Virus record (IMG/VR): IMGVR_UViG_2529292904_000023
DNA: 27,930 bases
DNA from: a virus
Taxonomy: Duplodnaviria > Heunggongvirae > Uroviricota > Caudoviricetes
Direction: 5' to 3' (one strand)
Shown one piece after another: positions 9,359 to 24,921 of this stretch. Within the stretch, counting starts at the first letter, position 1, and every line of letters starts with the position of its first letter. Made by a program: the position numbers and the translations under genes. The notes under the pieces are model-generated. The model searched no databases. It worked only from the letters and a program-made list of their open reading frames with translations, and had not been told where the DNA came from.

Positions 9359-10051
9359 TTAATTGTGTCGCTTAAGGGTTTGTGACTGACTGATTAAGAC
9401 CTTTCCAAAGACCATAAACCGATGTTCGTTTTCGCTGGTAATTCCCCATTCGCGGTAAATCTGATTATCAGAAATTACCAGCAGTTTATCAGGTATCATT
9501 TGCAGTCGTTTGACGTAAATTTTATCATCAAAACCAAATACATATATACCATCCCCATCAAACTGATTGATACTGATATCAACGAAGATGAGATCTCCTG
9601 GCTCAATGGTTGGACACATACTGTCCCCACGAACGTTGATAACTTTAATGTGATTTGCTGGTCGTCCACCAAACATCGATACAGCATTATCAGTTCTGTA
9701 TTCAATGGCATGAATCACATCAATGACATCACCGCCCTGGATAAGGCCATTTCCCGCACTGGCACTGACATCCAGCATTTCAATACGGAATACATCCTTC
9801 ACCTGCGCAACATCCTCACTAATACTGTTTTTACATACAGTATTACTTTTGAGGTCTGAGGTAAAGAGATCAGCAATATCAACACCTAAGCTCCTGGCAA
9901 TATTACTCAGGGCTTGTTCAGTGAATTGTTTCTGCTTACCTGTTTCGAGGCGCGAGATATTCGCCGCATCCACTCCTATTGCTTCAGCGAGATCGGCGAT
10001 TTTCATGTTCTTCGCCTGGCGAAGTTGTCTGACTCGATTTCCTATGTTCAT
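9359..10051 (-). CDS. cI: CI-type prophage repressor, HTH plus LexA-like S24 autopeptidase
   Basis: N-terminal HTH (QAKNMKIADLAEAIGVDAANISRLETG); Ala-Gly cleavage site (SASAG); S24 motifs VRGDSMCPTI and KRL. Confidence 0.85.
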   Translation of the reverse strand: MNIGNRVRQLRQAKNMKIADLAEAIGVDAANISRLETGKQKQFTEQALSNIARSLGVDIADLFTSDLKSNTVCKNSISEDVAQVKDVFRIEMLDVSASAGNGLIQGGDVIDVIHAIEYRTDNAVSMFGGRPANHIKVINVRGDSMCPTIEPGDLIFVDISINQFDGDGIYVFGFDDKIYVKRLQMIPDKLLVISDNQIYREWGITSENEHRFMVFGKVLISQSQTLKRHN

Positions 10052-15823: not shown

Positions 15824-16819
15824 GTGACCGTGAGAGCACTACTGACCCCTGAAATTGCCCCGCGTATGGGGATCGTATTGTTCAGACCAGGTTCAGAGCT
15901 GATGCCCCTGTTTATGCAGGGGCGTGTCCTGCTGGAGCCTGAGCCGGAACGTTATTCATCTTTCGCCAGTGGTGCCGTTCCGGCGGCATCACAACCGCTG
16001 GCGGATGATCCTGCCGTTCGGGCCGTGTTCCGCAATGATGCAGTGATCCGTCGTGCTGGTGGCGTGGAATGTCTTGAACGCTGGTTACTTCGTGAAAAAG
16101 GTTGCCAGTGGCCTCATTCCGACTGGCACAGCGAGAACATGACCACAATGCGACACTCGCCGGGCGCAATCCGTCTGTGCTGGCACTGCGATAACCAGCT
16201 GCGCGATCAGTTCACGGAACGGCTGGAATCAATGGCAACGGATAACTGTACCCGCTGGGTGTTGTCTGTTGTGCGTCGGGATCTCGGTTTTGATGACAGT
16301 CACGTTGTGACAATGCCGGAACTGTGCTGGTGGCTGATTCGTAATGACCTGGCGGATGCCTTACCGGAAAGTGCAGCCCGTAAGGCACTGAGATTACCGA
16401 AGCCTGTTGTGCCGTCTGTCACCCGGGAAAGTGACCTTGTGCCTTCGGTTCCTGCCACCAGCATCATCCAGGATAAAGCGAAAAAGGTGCTGGCGCTGAA
16501 AGTGGATCCGGAGTCGCCGGAGTCTTTTATGTTACGCCCAAAACGTCGCCGCTGGGTTAATGAAAAGTACACGCGCTGGGTTAAGACACAGCCGTGTGCA
16601 TGTTGTGGAAAGCCCGCTGATGATCCCCACCACCTGATAGGCCACGGTCAGTGTGGAATGGGTACAAAAGCGCATGACCTTTTTGTGTTGCCTTTGTGCA
16701 GAAAGCATCACGACGAGCTGCATGCGGATACCGTGGCATTTGAAGAGAAGTATGGCTCTCAGCTGGAGCTGATATTTCGTTTTATCGATCGTGCGCTGGC
16801 AATTGGCGTACTGGCGTAA
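15824..16819 (+). CDS. DUF968-like protein with a C-terminal HNH/zinc-finger-like motif
   Basis: C-terminal CACCGKPADDPHHLIGHG...CRKHHDELH; GTG start at 15824 or 15830. Confidence 0.55.
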   Translation: MTVRALLTPEIAPRMGIVLFRPGSELMPLFMQGRVLLEPEPERYSSFASGAVPAASQPLADDPAVRAVFRNDAVIRRAGGVECLERWLLREKGCQWPHSDWHSENMTTMRHSPGAIRLCWHCDNQLRDQFTERLESMATDNCTRWVLSVVRRDLGFDDSHVVTMPELCWWLIRNDLADALPESAARKALRLPKPVVPSVTRESDLVPSVPATSIIQDKAKKVLALKVDPESPESFMLRPKRRRWVNEKYTRWVKTQPCACCGKPADDPHHLIGHGQCGMGTKAHDLFVLPLCRKHHDELHADTVAFEEKYGSQLELIFRFIDRALAIGVLA

Positions 16820-16832
16820 GTGGAGAACGAGC

Positions 16833-17585
16833 ATGAACCTTGAAGCCTTACCGAAATATTACTCCCCGAAATCTCCAAAACTGAGCGATGACGCACCGGC
16901 GACAGGCTCTGGTGGTTTAACAATTACGGATGTGATGGCTGCGCAGGGGATGGTGCAGTCAAAAGCACCGCTTGGGTTTGCTTTATTCCTGGCAAAAGTT
17001 GGTGTTCAGGATCCTCAGTTTGCGATTGAAGGTCTGCTCAATTACGCGATGGCACTGGATAACCCGACATTGAATAAATTGAGTGAAGAAACCCGGCTAC
17101 AGATCATTCCTTACCTTGTGAATTTTGCCTTTGCTGATTATTCCAGGTCTGCGGCAAGTAAGGCTCGCTGTGAGCATTGTGCTGGTACTGGATTTCATAA
17201 TGTATTGCGCGAGGTGGTGAAACACTCCAGAAGCGGGGAATCTGTTATTAAGGAAGAGTGGGTGAAGGAACTATGTCAGCATTGTCATGGTAAGGGAGAA
17301 GTCAGCACAGCATGCAGAGGGTGCAAGGGTAAAGGTATTGTCCTGGATGAAAAAAGAACCCGGCTTCATGGCACACCTGTTTATAAGGTTTGTGGGCGTT
17401 GCAATGGAAACCGGTTTAGCAGTTTACCAACCACACTGGCGCGGCTTCATGTCCAGAAGCTGGTACCAGACCTGACGGATTATCAGTGGTACAAAGGATA
17501 TGCAGATGTCATTGATAAACTGGTTACAAAGTGCTGGCAGGAAGAAGCATATGCAGAGATACAATTGAGAAAGGTGACAAGATAA
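16833..17585 (+). CDS. Q: Late-gene antiterminator Q (phage 82 / QuuQ-like type)
   Basis: 250 aa directly upstream of the pR'/tR' candidate and the tRNA island; four Cys-x2-Cys pairs (CEHC, CQHC, CRGC, CGRC); GGAGA Shine-Dalgarno. Confidence 0.6.
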   Translation: MNLEALPKYYSPKSPKLSDDAPATGSGGLTITDVMAAQGMVQSKAPLGFALFLAKVGVQDPQFAIEGLLNYAMALDNPTLNKLSEETRLQIIPYLVNFAFADYSRSAASKARCEHCAGTGFHNVLREVVKHSRSGESVIKEEWVKELCQHCHGKGEVSTACRGCKGKGIVLDEKRTRLHGTPVYKVCGRCNGNRFSSLPTTLARLHVQKLVPDLTDYQWYKGYADVIDKLVTKCWQEEAYAEIQLRKVTR

Positions 17586-18087: not shown

Positions 18088-18163
18088 GGCCCTTTAGCTC
18101 AGTGGTGAGAGCGAGCGACTCATAATCGCCAGGTCGCTGGTTCAAATCCAGCAAGGGCCACCA
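18088..18163 (+). tRNA. tRNA with CAU anticodon (Ile2/Met type, ileZ-like)
   Basis: Cloverleaf folded by hand: 7-bp acceptor stem, GCTC/GAGC D-stem, anticodon loop CTCATAA, T-loop TTCAAAT, encoded CCA. Confidence 0.85.
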
Positions 18164-18172
18164 TATCACATA

Positions 18173-18249
18173 CCGCCATTAGCTCATCGGGATAGAGCGT
18201 CAGCCTTCGAAGCTGGCTGTGCGGGGTTCAAGTCCCCGATGGCGGTCCA
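18173..18249 (+). tRNA. tRNA-Arg (anticodon UCG)
   Basis: Acceptor CCGCCAT/ATGGCGG, anticodon loop CTTCGAA, T-arm CGGGG-TTCAAGT-CCCCG, encoded CCA. Confidence 0.8.
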
Positions 18250-18262
18250 TTATCAGCATCAT

Positions 18263-18339
18263 GCGTTGTTAGCTCAGCCGGACAGAGCAATTGCCTTCTA
18301 AGCAATCGGTCACTGGTTCGAATCCAGTACAACGCGCCA
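18263..18339 (+). tRNA. tRNA-Arg (anticodon UCU)
   Basis: Acceptor GCGTTGT/ACAACGC, anticodon loop CTTCTAA, T-loop TTCGAAT, encoded CCA. Confidence 0.85.
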
Positions 18340-18626
18340 CACCACACTTATCTGCCCTGACTCTCTTTTGCGGGCTTTTTATTACAGGAAAGACACCGGA
18401 CAGTGAAATGTTAAATGCCTCACAATTCAGGTAGTCGACTGTTGCCTGACATGCTGAGCGTTTGTTAAAAAAATCCTGCATGATGAATCCCCCTGGGCGG
18501 CGGGGCATAATGACAGATGTTTGGTTGCGTATTGTATAGGCAAGTTGCGGATTCTGTCTGGTCATTGCAGAATTCACCGGGAGGCACCCGGCATCATGCT
18601 GTATACAGAGATTAGGCATATATCCA

Positions 18627-18652
18627 GGCTCCTCATCGCAGGAGCCTTTTTA
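18627..18652 (+). terminator. Rho-independent terminator
   Basis: GGCTCCT-catcgc-AGGAGCC followed by TTTTT. Confidence 0.6.
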
Positions 18653-18656
18653 CATG

Positions 18657-18682
18657 CAAAAAAAGCCCGAGTAGGTTCGGGC
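18657..18682 (-). terminator. Convergent minus-strand terminator
   Basis: A-run then GCCCGA-gtaggt-TCGGGC; reads as hairpin plus T-run on the minus strand. Confidence 0.5.
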
Positions 18683-18864
18683 AACAGCATGAGATACTTG
18701 CATTGTCATTTTTATCGTGTGGATTTTAACCAGGGTTTATCAGGCTGCGCAACTGCGTGGCCTTTTTTCATTTCTTGGGCTGTAGTCCCCGTGTGTCATT
18801 CAGGCTTCCGGACTACAGCCCACTCCATATCTGATTTAATACACTATCCCGGCCGGGAGGAATA

Positions 18865-20718: not shown

Positions 20719-20868
20719 AAAGTGAGCCAGTCAAATGGAAGGTATCGTTAAACTCACCGGTAGTGTCAGTGGGTCGTCTGAGATGCCTGCATGAGTTATC
20801 AGAGCCATCAGTACTTAACTGGTGGCTTTTTTTATTGTTGTCAGCTTCCGGATAACGGGAGACGGGGT

Positions 20869-21084
20869 ATGTACCAGATGGAAAAAATCACAACAGGTGT
20901 GTCATACACCACGTCAGCGGTGGGAACGGGCTACTGGTTCCTGCAGTTGCTGGACAGGGTTTCCCCGTCTCAGTGGGCGGCAATAGGCGTGCTGGGAAGT
21001 CTGCTGTTTGGGCTGCTGACATATCTGACTAACCTGTATTTCAAAATCAGAGAGGACCGGCGTAAGGCCGCCCGGGGAGAGTGA
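20869..21084 (+). CDS. S: Phage-21-type class II holin (pinholin) with a dual start
   Basis: 71 aa, MYQMEKITT... with Met1/Met4 dual-start motif; two TM segments; C-terminal [14 protein letters not shown]; GGGAGA Shine-Dalgarno. Confidence 0.85.
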
Positions 21085-21087
21085 ATA

Positions 21088-21645
21088 ATGAACCATGAAG
21101 AAATGAATCAGCGCTTCAGTCGCCTGGAAAATGAAATTGCTGAACTGAATAAAAAACTGTCGACGCTGATGCATTCTGAAGATGAAAAAAAACGCCGCGA
21201 TGAGCAGTTTGCTGCGTTTGACGATTATTGTCGGAAAGTGATGAGCAAAAATCTCGCAGAGTGTTTCAGTATTCATAATGATAATTTCAGTGAGCTGGAA
21301 TGGGAGTGTAACCGGCCATCCTTTGTTGTATCCGGTGATGCCGGGAAAATAACCATCTCAGAAAATGGGAAAGTAACACCTCCATCGCACCAGCACAGTG
21401 AGGAGCTCATTGAATTTGCCATTGATTACCTGAAGAACAATAAAAAGCAGGGGCTGATGAAGCGCGTTGGCCGTTGCATGGGATATCTTCAGGTAGCCGC
21501 TGAGATTGAAGCGCTGGCCAGTGGTGCTGATAAGGATGCAATTGTGCGGGAGGCTCTTCTTCGTGATTTTAATACTCCACCCTTTAAAAAAGTGCCGGCT
21601 TACTGGCTTCATCCGGGGCTGACTTATCTTAAAGTGCGTATTTAG
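21088..21645 (+). CDS. Hypothetical 185-aa protein inserted between holin and endolysin
   Basis: ORF 3 nt after the holin stop; N-terminal heptad-like segment (LENEIAELNKKLSTL); no TM segment or recognised motif. Confidence 0.5.
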   Translation: MNHEEMNQRFSRLENEIAELNKKLSTLMHSEDEKKRRDEQFAAFDDYCRKVMSKNLAECFSIHNDNFSELEWECNRPSFVVSGDAGKITISENGKVTPPSHQHSEELIEFAIDYLKNNKKQGLMKRVGRCMGYLQVAAEIEALASGADKDAIVREALLRDFNTPPFKKVPAYWLHPGLTYLKVRI

Positions 21646-21681
21646 TGGGCCAGGGACAGCGGCTGAATATTTAATATATCC

Positions 21682-22215
21682 ATGAACACCAAAATCAAAT
21701 ACGGCCTGTCGGCTGCCGTTCTGGCGCTGATTGCCGCTGGTGCGTCTGCGCCTGACATTCTCGACCAGTTTCTGGATGAAAAGGAAGGCAATCACACCAC
21801 GGCATACCGTGATGGTGCAGGTATCTGGACCATCTGCCGTGGTGCCATCATGGTGGATGGCAAACCTGTCGTTCCGGGCATGAAGTTGTCGAAGGAAAAA
21901 TGCGACCAGGTTAACGCCATTGAGCGTGATAAAGCGCTGGCGTGGGTGGAGAAAAACATCAAAGTGCCATTGAGCGAACCCCAGAAAGCGGGGATCGCGT
22001 CATTCTGTCCGTACAACATTGGTCCCGGTAAGTGTTTCCCGTCGACGTTTTATAAACGAATTAATGCAGGTGATCGCAGGGGAGCGTGTGAGGCGATTCG
22101 CTGGTGGATTAAGGACGGTGGCAGAGACTGCCGTATTCGTTCAAACAACTGCTACGGTCAGGTATCCCGTCGTGACCAGGAGAGCGCGCTGGCGTGCTGG
22201 GGTATCGACAGATAA
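21682..22215 (+). CDS. R: SAR endolysin (T4-lysozyme-like)
   Basis: Weakly hydrophobic Gly/Ala-rich N-terminus (GLSAAVLALIAAGASA); catalytic E-x8-D-x5-T pattern (EGNHTTAYRDGAGIWTICRG). Confidence 0.8.
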   Translation: MNTKIKYGLSAAVLALIAAGASAPDILDQFLDEKEGNHTTAYRDGAGIWTICRGAIMVDGKPVVPGMKLSKEKCDQVNAIERDKALAWVEKNIKVPLSEPQKAGIASFCPYNIGPGKCFPSTFYKRINAGDRRGACEAIRWWIKDGGRDCRIRSNNCYGQVSRRDQESALACWGIDR

Positions 22216-22329
22216 GCAGAATATTTTGCTGAAAAATAAAGCATGGCCACGCGGGCGGATAACATGAAATCCTGCGAACTGGCGAAACGTAAGTGAATAA
22301 AAGTAAAAACCCCGTTTGTTGGCACCAAG

Positions 22330-22364
22330 CGGGGTTTTGTGTTTCCTGACTCCGGAAAAGTCAA
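22330..22364 (+). terminator. Rho-independent terminator between R and Rz
   Basis: 9-bp stem (CCCCGTTTG / CAAGCGGGG, one G-U pair) followed by TTTTGTGTTT. Confidence 0.6.
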
Positions 22365-22374
22365 AGGAGAAAGT

Positions 22375-22512
22375 GTGTTTGATTTTAGCAAACTGATTCG
22401 GGAGATTCGAGTGATGGCTGAAAAATTATCCACCTGGAAGTTCATTCTTATCTGGCTGGTGTTTGTGATTATGGCCTCCGGTTATTTCATCGGTCAGATA
22501 CGCTGGTGGTGA
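22375..22512 (+). CDS. Candidate micro-ORF, 45 aa (32 aa from the internal ATG at 22414), single hydrophobic segment
   Basis: Not in the track; AAAGGAGAAA Shine-Dalgarno before GTG 22375; hydrophobic core [20 protein letters not shown]; stop 1 nt before the Rz start. Confidence 0.3.
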
Positions 22513-22513
22513 A

Positions 22514-22978
22514 ATGAACCGCGTACTGTGCGTGGTCATCATTGCCCTGCTGGTGGCCTGTGGTGCGCTTAGTCTGGGGCTGAATCATTACCGTGATAAC
22601 GCCATTACCTACAAAGCCCAGCGCGACAAAAATGTCAGAGAACTGAAGCTGGCGAACGCGGCAATTACTGACATGCAGATGCGTCAGCGTGATGTTGCTG
22701 CGCTCGATGCAAAATACACGAAGGAGTTAGCTGATGCGAAAGCTGAAAATGATGCTCTGCGTGATGATGTTGCCGCTGGTCGTCGTCGGTTGCACATCAA
22801 AGCAGTCTGTCAGTCAGTGCGTGAAGCCACCACCGCCTCCGGCGTGGATAATGCAGCCTCCCCCCGACTGGCAGACACCGCTGAACGGGATTATTTCACC
22901 CTCAGAGCGCGACTGATAATAATGCAAAAACAACTTGAAGGGGCACAGCTATACATTCGAGAGCAATGCCTCAGATAA
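22514..22978 (+). CDS. Rz: Rz i-spanin
   Basis: N-terminal TM anchor, coiled-coil periplasmic domain, 154 aa, Rz1 embedded in the +1 frame. Confidence 0.8.
22734..22916 (+). CDS. Rz1: Rz1 o-spanin lipoprotein
   Basis: Lipobox LVVVGC, proline-rich (PPPPP), 60 aa, fully embedded in Rz. Confidence 0.75.
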
Positions 22979-23285: not shown

Positions 23286-23711
23286 TTAGTGCGGAAATAT
23301 TTGTGTAGTGTTCTGAATGTTCTCAGTAAAGAGTAATGAATTATCAAAGGTATAGTAATACCTTTTGTTTTCGTGGATATTTGTAATCCATCTGAAAACC
23401 CCTGCTGTAGCAAGATTTTTCCTGTATTCGTAAAATGATAACTCTCCTGATTTGAATCCTTTTAAGGTGGCTTCTATAAGGCATTTATTTTTTGAAAATC
23501 TTACATTTACAACCTTACCCTGTCCTTTTATTAAAACCGTATTATCGTTTTCAAGAACAAGATGAATATTCTCTGTGGCTAAATAGTAAATGTAATGTGA
23601 GACATTGTGACGTTTTAGTTCAGAATAAAACCAGTGATAGTTTAAATTATTTCGCACTTTATCGAATATTTGTTTAAAAATGGCAACCTGAGCCATTGTA
23701 GTACCTTCCAT
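23286..23711 (-). CDS. AT-rich hypothetical protein, possibly DUF1398 (YbcV/YdfO-like)
   Basis: Antisense to the late operon, downstream of Rz, as for ybcV in DLP12; family call is from memory of synteny, not sequence. Confidence 0.4.
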
Positions 23712-24414: not shown

Positions 24415-24921
24415 ATGGCCTTTTTATTGAATAAAAGTGATATGGCCTCCTCCATCGGTATCTCTGTTCAGGCATTTGATAAATGGGGCGTTCCTCCTGT
24501 TGAACGTCGGGGGAGGGAAGTTTTATATGACGTTAAAACTGTACTGGAGATAGATCGCGAGCGGCGACAACACAATCAGAGAACACCTGATGACGGGGGA
24601 GAACTGGAGGAAAGGCTGCTTCGGGCCAGAGCTGAACTGACAGAAGAACAGGCTGTAGCTCAAAAACTTAAAAATCAGGTAACCGAAGGTAAGCTCATCG
24701 ATTCAGACTTCTGCGTTTTCGCCCTCAGCAAACTGGCGATGGCATTGTCCAGTACGCTTGATTCCATTCCGTTATCCATGCAGCGACAGTTCCCGGATTT
24801 AACGCCACGTCATATTGACCATCTGAAAACCCTTATTGCAAAGGGGGCAAATCAGTGTGCGCGGGCAGGGGATAAATTACCGGATTTACTCGATGAATAT
24901 ATCAGAGCAACAACTGAATAA
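24415..24921 (+). CDS. nu1: Terminase small subunit, Nu1-like
   Basis: Parallels the recalled lambda Nu1 (EVLYD, FCVFALSKLA, LPLSMQRQFPDL, LKTLIAKG); start ATG 24415 with GGAGAGGAG Shine-Dalgarno. Confidence 0.8.
   Translation: MAFLLNKSDMASSIGISVQAFDKWGVPPVERRGREVLYDVKTVLEIDRERRQHNQRTPDDGGELEERLLRARAELTEEQAVAQKLKNQVTEGKLIDSDFCVFALSKLAMALSSTLDSIPLSMQRQFPDLTPRHIDHLKTLIAKGANQCARAGDKLPDLLDEYIRATTE

Follow-up and report, generated by a model that had tools for sequence, protein, structure and literature searches.

Pathogenic Escherichia coli release phage particles under the control of lysis cassettes of the phage 21 type, which in stx-carrying relatives also govern the release of Shiga toxin. 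In most of the related E. coli prophages, a slot between the pinholin gene S and the endolysin gene R encodes a protein of the YdfR family. The described representatives are YdfR from the Qin prophage of E. coli K-12 (103 amino acids (aa), PF07041) and the YdfR family proteins of the Stx phages. The only experimental data found for the family come from the study of K-12 YdfR, which interacts with the catalytic, N-terminal half of RNase E in bacterial two-hybrid tests and in pull-downs and is purified together with RNA (PMC13232886, 2026). The gene considered here occupies the same slot, with the same coupled start, in a lambdoid prophage recorded as IMGVR_UViG_2529292904_000023 (27,930 nucleotides (nt); the window is the whole of this stretch). 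It starts with ATG, spans positions 21088..21645 of the plus strand and encodes a protein of 185 aa with an architecture that is the reverse of the K-12 one: YdfR consists of DUF1327 and a helix, without the C-terminal domain (C-domain), whereas the window protein carries the C-domain and lacks DUF1327. Far from being an unusual insertion, the gene is a short isoform, common and already catalogued, of the ydfR-family genes that fill this slot. Within the lambdoid late operon it is very probably accessory and non-essential, and it represents the recurrent short form (coil and C-domain) of the extended YdfR family, or PHROG 1085.

The assignment to the family is based on profile and pairwise searches. 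In hmmscan, residues 1-185 match positions 117-296 of the 296-position profile of PHROG 1085 (unknown function) with E=8.1e-113 and 377.7 bits. The same profile is matched by all 35 aligned homologs, and its sub-fragments phrog_36381, phrog_26186, phrog_15975 and phrog_2091 are all labeled 'unknown function'. The N-terminal third of the profile is not covered because the long slot genes begin with DUF1327, which is missing here. In these long relatives from the same slot (268-329 aa), the N-terminal DUF1327 (PF07041, about 152 bits) is followed by the coil and then by the C-domain. Residues 31-185 are 92% identical to the C-terminal region of the DUF1327/YdfR protein of Stx2_95 (329 aa, BCI50300), and residues 71-185 share 83% identity with the C-terminal part of gp05 of Stx2 phage 86 (268 aa, 'YdfR family protein'); at the DNA level, the similarity starts at 21183 and at 21297, respectively. 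PF07041 proteins of 287 and 296 aa are 85-87% identical across 98% of the 185-aa query. An earlier note on the window, made from its sequence, had mentioned ydfR in Qin as a precedent for an insertion at this site. The precedent is real, and the relation goes beyond a mere resemblance, as the gene belongs to the same family as the ydfR slot genes (83-92% identity).

DUF1327 itself is absent from the window. The 185-aa protein does not match PF07041 (gathering score 25 bits) even at E<=0.1, and tblastn finds no DUF1327 match anywhere in the window. Against Pfam and NCBIfam, the protein scores below the cutoff of every family; the sub-threshold matches to Relaxase_C and HLH (13-14 bits) were rejected as coiled-coil noise. 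In the search for a characterized family, the Pfam, NCBIfam, PHROGs and PADLOC scans of the protein, 35 homologs and the neighboring ORFs yielded only PHROGs of unknown function. The RefSeq label is 'hypothetical protein' (WP_001015163-like), and the literature search returned nothing published on the 185-aa protein or its accessions.

The comparison of the homologous sequences indicates a modular family. Its full-length members consist of an N-domain (DUF1327 or DUF1327-like), a coiled coil and a basic C-domain of ~110 aa, and the window gene is a natural isoform without the N-domain. The coil of the window protein differs by ~50% from the coil of the long forms, which argues for an old lineage and against a recent deletion. 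The start MNHEEMNQR also heads diverged short forms of 195-222 aa, and independent short or C-only forms are present in distant lineages (P0135 and P0140, the latter being the C-domain alone). Intact genes composed of DUF1327 and the coil occur in the PhiR12 phages and in Yersinia ruckeri, and the coil is joined to an unrelated C-terminus in Stx2_14744 (L010:1501-1986) and Stx1_499 (L011:1186-1977). Residues 1-62 alone are common to variants of 161, 169 and 263 aa, as detected by tblastn. The N-terminal helical part is a recombining module, which has been joined to other C-termini as well.

Two observations on the relatives should be added. In Stx2_14744 and Stx1_499, the unrelated C-terminus of ~100 aa replaces the sequence after ...NLAECF, and about 500 nt of DNA without annotation separate it from R. 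No family was matched by this alternative C-terminus, carried by the 161- and 263-aa variants; it may be an additional (third) C-terminal module or the scar of a rearrangement. The second observation concerns the long ydfR-family gene, which is frameshifted in many complete E. coli genomes (e.g., L013:2553-3443 and L014:1975-2963) and is 98.6-99.5% identical over nt 116-558 of the query. In RefSeq, the 5′ part of such a frameshifted gene is annotated as a pseudogene, and the part encoding the C-domain is either left unannotated or listed as a separate hypothetical protein.

The occupancy of the slot was counted in a sample of 80 IMG/VR loci picked by the holin protein alone (holins 97-100% identical; sample not dereplicated), 70 of which have R inside. 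S and R are adjacent, at a distance of 1-4 nt, in 12 of the 70 loci. A DUF1327-only insert is found in 35 loci, DUF1327 with the C-domain in 11, the coil with the C-domain, which is the architecture of the window, in 10, and other content in 2. The slot is thus filled in 58 of the 70 loci (83%), which makes a ydfR-family insert the norm for this holin and the direct S-R arrangement the minority. The view of the earlier note, in which S is canonically followed by R without an intervening gene, has to be reversed for cassettes with this holin.

The conservation of the gene was examined in a separate IMG/VR scan with the C-domain, in which the 80 best-matching loci were counted. The identical 185-codon open reading frame (ORF), with its ATG 3 nt past the holin stop, is present in 41 of them, and R follows at 36 or 42 nt except in two loci with gaps of 454 and 671 nt. 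Long forms account for further loci of this set (29 of 296 aa and 2 of 329 aa). The gene is intact in 73 of the 80 loci and disrupted in 7, where an ORF of 158 or 134 aa is left; one or two reach the contig end. The order of S, the insert and R is kept in all 77 loci that have both S and R inside. Among 5,426 complete E. coli genomes, DNA matches to the gene occur in 810, with >=80% of the gene covered in 249. A scan of the GTDB species representatives, performed with a narrow search pattern, yields 3 loci, all from Escherichia or Shigella.

The ORF is a genuine gene, and its C-domain is under purifying selection. The ratio of nonsynonymous to synonymous substitution rates (dN/dS) was calculated by the Nei-Gojobori method for the window gene against its E. 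coli homologs. For residues 76-185, the ratio is 0.16-0.28 against the intact short forms, and 0.16 and 0.41 against two long forms, with dS of 0.17-0.34. The coil (residues 1-65) gives about 0.5-0.7, with dS of 0.40-0.60. On the minus strand, the overlapping ORFs 20914..21276 and 21358..21795 were rejected as alternative genes, since the substitution pattern fits the plus-strand frame. The GC content of the gene is 45.0%, against 54.8% in S and 53.9% in R, and the insert is compositionally foreign to both.

The position of the gene described by the earlier note is confirmed by the ORFs and the Pfam matches of its neighbors. Upstream lies the pinholin S, a phage-21-type class II holin (20866..21084, plus strand; PF04971 'Bacteriophage P21 holin S', E=9.5e-33; phrog_9876/phrog_20), whose gene contains the dual-start motif MYQM. 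Downstream lies the R21-type signal-arrest-release (SAR) endolysin R (21682..22215, plus strand; PF00959, T4-lysozyme-type, E=2.4e-24; phrog_7 endolysin). The N-terminus of the endolysin is SAR-like and Gly/Ala-rich (YGLSAAVLALIAAGASAP), and the spacing E35-x8-D44-x5-T50 can be read from its translation. The holin stop codon TGA (21082-21084) is separated by 3 nt (ATA) from the ATG at 21088, so the junction reads ...GGGGAGAG TGA ATA ATG. The Shine-Dalgarno-like element GGGGAGAG (21074..21081, plus strand) is placed within the 3′ end of S, 6 nt 5′ of the ATG. In the compared junctions of 24 slot configurations, the first gene after S begins 1-4 nt past the S stop and uses GGGGAGAG, and in the insert-free cassettes it is R that relies on this element at the end of S. 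The 185-aa gene, starting 3 nt past the holin stop, therefore takes over the Shine-Dalgarno sequence which serves R in the insert-free cassettes.

The start of R differs accordingly between the two kinds of cassettes. The stop of the 185-aa gene precedes the R start by 36 nt, and this AU-rich spacer (…GAATATTTAATATATCC; 21646..21681) has no obvious Shine-Dalgarno sequence. Most of the 80 best-matching C-domain loci have a spacer of this length and 7 have one of 42 nt, and the 36-nt spacer is co-inherited with the C-domain-bearing inserts. Behind a filled slot, the 5′ end of R encodes MNTKI, MNAKI or MSAKI, and otherwise MSRKF or MSKL (R starts in L102-L180). The R leader of the filled slot is AU-rich (...ATAAATATCC ATG or ...TTAATATATCC ATG) and is devoid of a recognizable Shine-Dalgarno sequence. 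The consensus scans reveal no promoter-like site on the plus strand between 20866 and 21682, and the sole terminator match between S and R (21604-21621) is weak, with 3 GC pairs and no T-run. Because no promoter or terminator separates the gene from S and R, late co-expression with them is the natural reading, as was also assumed from the gene order in the earlier note. The in-line, translationally coupled position further leads to the expectation that the gene is silent in the lysogen.

The structure of the protein was predicted by AlphaFold with 35 diverse sequences (mean predicted local distance difference test score (pLDDT) 82.7, predicted template modeling score 0.60), while a shallow alignment of 17 sequences gave a pLDDT of 56. 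The N-terminal module (21094..21273, plus strand) is modeled as a helical hairpin or coiled coil of helices 3-27 and 31-62 and is acidic (isoelectric point (pI) 5.6). Its hydrophobic residues M6, F10, L13, I17, L20, L24 and L27 follow a 4-3-4-3 repeat, which bears out the heptad-like N-terminus proposed earlier. The linker 62-76 is of low confidence. The C-domain (residues 76-185; 21313..21642, plus strand) is modeled with a pLDDT of 83-96 as a three-strand beta meander (79-97) with helices 101-117, 123-144, 151-161 and 178-184, and is basic (pI 9.3). In the alignments, residues G128, R129, L134, Q135, A137, P165, K167, W173, P176 and Y180 are invariant and cluster in the motifs GR[CS]MG.LQ.AAE, PPFK and W..PG..YL. 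The whole protein has a pI of 6.3 and a grand average of hydropathy of -0.63. It contains no transmembrane segment (top 19-residue Kyte-Doolittle mean 0.75) and is soluble and cytoplasmic. The lack of such a segment and of a recognized motif, both pointed out in the earlier note, agrees with this hydropathy maximum and with the Pfam and NCBIfam scores below cutoff.

The fold searches place the protein next to no known structure. Foldseek with the 185-aa model returned only E>=1 in the PDB and E>=0.2 in BFVD, a search which the N-terminal helices may have dominated, as the model was untrimmed. The sequence-profile search of the PDB gave nothing under E=0.025, and its matches are all coiled-coil artefacts. 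The C-domain has no match in Pfam, NCBIfam, PADLOC, the PDB or BFVD and thus stands outside Pfam and any solved structure.

The family as a whole is small: an exhaustive profile search of 1.84 billion representative proteins finds only 43 matches, and the members are confined to enteric bacteria. The distant homologs are 27-43% identical to the window protein and keep the order of N-domain, coil and C-domain. The N-domain is fused in 12 of the 16 distinct C-domain proteins of the non-E. coli type. In Salmonella Montevideo, the gene immediately precedes that of a class II holin, S overlaps R, and the contig begins just before the gene. In another Salmonella enterica and in one enteric contig, it is located between the Q antiterminator and the class II holin genes, again with overlapping S and R. 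A second enteric contig, which also begins just before the gene, has one ORF between it and the class II holin gene, followed by the S/R overlap, and a third carries it between Q and the class II holin gene, at which the contig ends. In Yersinia ruckeri, a gene for the N-domain and coil is found between the antiterminator and the holin, and in a metagenomic contig a C-domain-only gene precedes a GH108-type endolysin gene. As the relatives outside E. coli lie 5′ of S, what is conserved is a place next to the lysis genes at the start of the late operon, and neither the position between S and R nor the type of endolysin.

In four divergent contexts, a convergent gene of ~104 aa (phrog_1853, unknown function, no Pfam family) stands immediately 3′ of the C-domain gene. 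These contexts are Stx2 phage 86, an O157:H7 prophage, Salmonella and the GH108 metagenomic contig, and the proteins are 40-68% identical. Genes of the phrog_1853 type are located on the minus strand at L001:3706-4017, L018:1859-2215, L007:4785-5102 and L182:495-812. Their recurrence suggests that the C-domain gene and phrog_1853 form an optional two-gene module; the partner gene is absent from the window. DUF1883 was considered as a distant relative of the partner and rejected (hhalign probability 0.03). A further observation concerns the Salmonella-type relatives P0163, P0165, P0166 and P0133, in which the linker between the N-domain and the coil (residues ~85-180) weakly matches phrog_31 and phrog_2148 (E 1e-6 to 1e-4), the PHROGs of the central tail fibre J and of tail fibres. 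Fibrous or coiled segments may have been exchanged with tail genes. The tail-fibre idea was rejected for the window protein, which does not contain the matching linker segment.

The fusion of domains offers a lead to the function of the protein. Because the C-domain is joined to a DUF1327-like domain in most lineages, it would belong to the DUF1327 pathway, i.e., it would help to regulate the decay or processing of RNA at a late stage of infection. In the reading that is tentatively favored here, the gene possibly encodes a coiled-coil protein that is expressed late, stays in the cytoplasm and binds a target related to RNA decay through its basic C-domain. Expression would be limited to lytic growth through the Q-antiterminated late transcript, the heptad helix would mediate oligomerization, and the basic C-domain would contact a cytoplasmic macromolecule. 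DUF1327 may represent the half that docks to RNase E and the C-domain the cargo or effector half. With the docking half missing, the 185-aa form would act free-standing or as a competitor, and it would be no structural part of the holin-endolysin-spanin machinery. The likeness to the known adaptors or modulators of RNase E (RapZ, RraA, Dip of phiKZ and gp0.7 of T7) is a functional analogy without homology, drawn because the sister domain DUF1327 binds RNase E (PMC13232886).

Several points weigh against this RNA-decay proposal. The link to RNase E comes from one paper and concerns a domain absent from the 185-aa protein, and overproduction of YdfR barely alters the transcriptome (PMC13232886). 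A shared function deduced from domain fusion is suggestive only. The constant adjacency to the holin could fit a role in lysis equally well. Finally, the long forms are often frameshifted in resident prophages, so selection for the family is not strong everywhere.

The first of the alternatives, a modulator of lysis timing, is rather doubtful as an explanation. Such a protein would bind either the SAR endolysin before its release or the charged C-tail that the pinholin exposes to the cytoplasm, or its gene would simply displace R from the S-coupled start, and either way the moment or the sharpness of lysis would be tuned. Soluble, non-essential modulators of lysis are encoded by small accessory genes in or beside the lysis cassettes of other phages and are co-expressed with the holin, e.g., LysA and LysB of P2, LydB of P1 and RIII of T4. 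The family adjoins the holin or the lysis cassette in every context examined: the gene lies between S and R in E. coli, and about 0.15-0.9 kb 5′ of the lysis genes in Salmonella, Yersinia and other enterics, including the GH108 endolysin context. The takeover of the coupled start, which leaves R with an altered 5′ end behind an AU-rich leader lacking an obvious Shine-Dalgarno sequence, points the same way. The protein has, however, no transmembrane segment or membrane anchor and resembles no lysis-category PHROG or Pfam family, and the same holin allele functions with an empty slot or with a DUF1327-only insert. It differs in these respects from the holin, antiholin and tethered regulators (S107, S21-71, RI of T4, the releasin gp25 of Mu), as it shows no holin-family match either. 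The earlier note would have taken a recognizable homolog of a characterized lysis accessory protein as a refutation, and neither the profile searches (Pfam, PHROGs, NCBIfam, PADLOC) nor the fold searches uncover one; for the accessory proteins of the P2 LysA/LysB, P1 LydB and T4 RIII type in particular, no sequence or fold homology is detected in Pfam, PHROGs, the PDB or BFVD. Moreover, the head of the late operon also houses the small RNAs (sRNAs) of the stx locus, nanS-p, DUF1378, DUF826, HicAB and DUF4406. It is thus a general cargo site, at which adjacency is weak evidence for a lysis role, and the link of the gene to lysis is one of position only.

The surroundings of the gene bring in the second alternative, an effector of counter-defense or inter-phage conflict, which is unlikely. 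Such a diversifying, late-expressed protein would neutralize a late-triggered abortive infection or defense system of the host or exclude competitors, with phrog_1853 as partner or regulator in some phages. The patchy distribution, the shuffled domain mosaics with variable C-termini, the GC content below that of the flanks, the convergent partner of ~104 aa retained at 40-68% identity in four divergent contexts, and the presence of HicAB and other cargo nearby would be expected of such a gene. The gene also resembles the late-operon cargo known as morons (stx, nanS-p, bor, DUF1378/DUF826), being dispensable, distinct in composition and variable in presence. Unlike an autonomous moron, it has no promoter or terminator of its own detected, and so it would not be expressed in the lysogen as the classical exclusion genes are. 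Selection on the C-domain is purifying and not diversifying, the partner is missing from the window and from most E. coli loci, where the 36-nt spacer is found instead, and at E<=0.1 neither the window protein nor the long forms nor the phrog_1853 partner match any family of PADLOC-DB v2.

A functionless remnant, meaning a 5′-deleted relic of a long ydfR-family gene that hitch-hikes between two essential lysis genes, would account for the missing N-terminal domain, which most relatives have, for the frequent frameshifts and pseudogene labels of the long forms in E. coli chromosomes and for the 7 disrupted loci among the best-matching 80, but it is very unlikely in view of the intact ORF with identical start and junctions in 41 of these loci, the C-domain dN/dS of 0.16-0.28, the MNHEEMNQR start common to the diverged short forms of 195-222 aa, the independent short and C-only forms of distant lineages (P0135, P0140) and the ~50% divergence of the coil, which marks an old lineage.

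The RNA-decay reading can be extended to the family as a whole, in a form that is quite improbable. The C-domain would then be the effector half of a hitherto unrecognized holin-adjacent module, conserved among the prophages of Enterobacterales, which couples a cytoplasmic process, either RNA decay through DUF1327 and RNase E or the sensing of a late-infection signal, to lysis. In this extension, phrog_1853 would be an optional regulator, and the short forms would be naturally uncoupled effectors that change when pathogenic E. coli lyse or how phage and cargo are released from them. A family that modulates RNA decay or lysis timing would mean a further level of regulation, and a widespread one, in a textbook lysis system; a family without measurable effect would be an example of cargo building up at translationally coupled junctions.

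The remaining features of the window are those of a lambdoid prophage, which is stx-negative yet Stx-phage-like. The gene of a cI-like repressor is located at 9359..10051 on the minus strand. Genes for a KilA-N protein and a DUF968 protein precede the Q antiterminator gene (16791..17585). A tRNA-Met/Arg/Arg cluster (18088-18339) lies 5′ of two sRNAs: STnc100 (18449-18657, plus strand; Rfam 175.6 bits) and the anti-GcvB sRNA AgvB (18658-18717, minus strand; Rfam 56.2 bits, which equals the gathering score). This STnc100/AgvB site, in front of a gene for a NanS-p-type sialate esterase, is where the Stx phages carry stx.

Downstream of R, the lysis cassette ends with the spanin gene Rz (22514..22978, plus strand; PF03245, E=1.4e-52), in which Rz1 is embedded (22734..22916, LVVVGC lipobox, taken from the ORF list). 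A strong terminator-like hairpin with a 13-bp stem and a T-rich tail is located between R and Rz (22306-22338, plus strand). It is followed by an ORF of 57 aa with one hydrophobic segment (22339-22512, plus strand; phrog_6632, unknown function). The hairpin and this ORF make the R-Rz gap a second cargo slot, which is occupied by ant in the Stx phages. Between Rz and the Nu1/gpA terminase genes, a DUF1398 gene (23286-23711, minus strand; PF07166, E=3e-43) takes the site of the bor or TonB-like morons of related prophages. The ORF of the gpA-type large terminase (24836-26437, plus strand) encodes just 533 aa, its match to the nuclease domain ends at position 192 of a 294-position profile, and 2 nt past the ORF a separate one of 127 aa (26439-26822, plus strand) starts. 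The gpA-type gene may thus be frameshifted, in which case the prophage may be defective.

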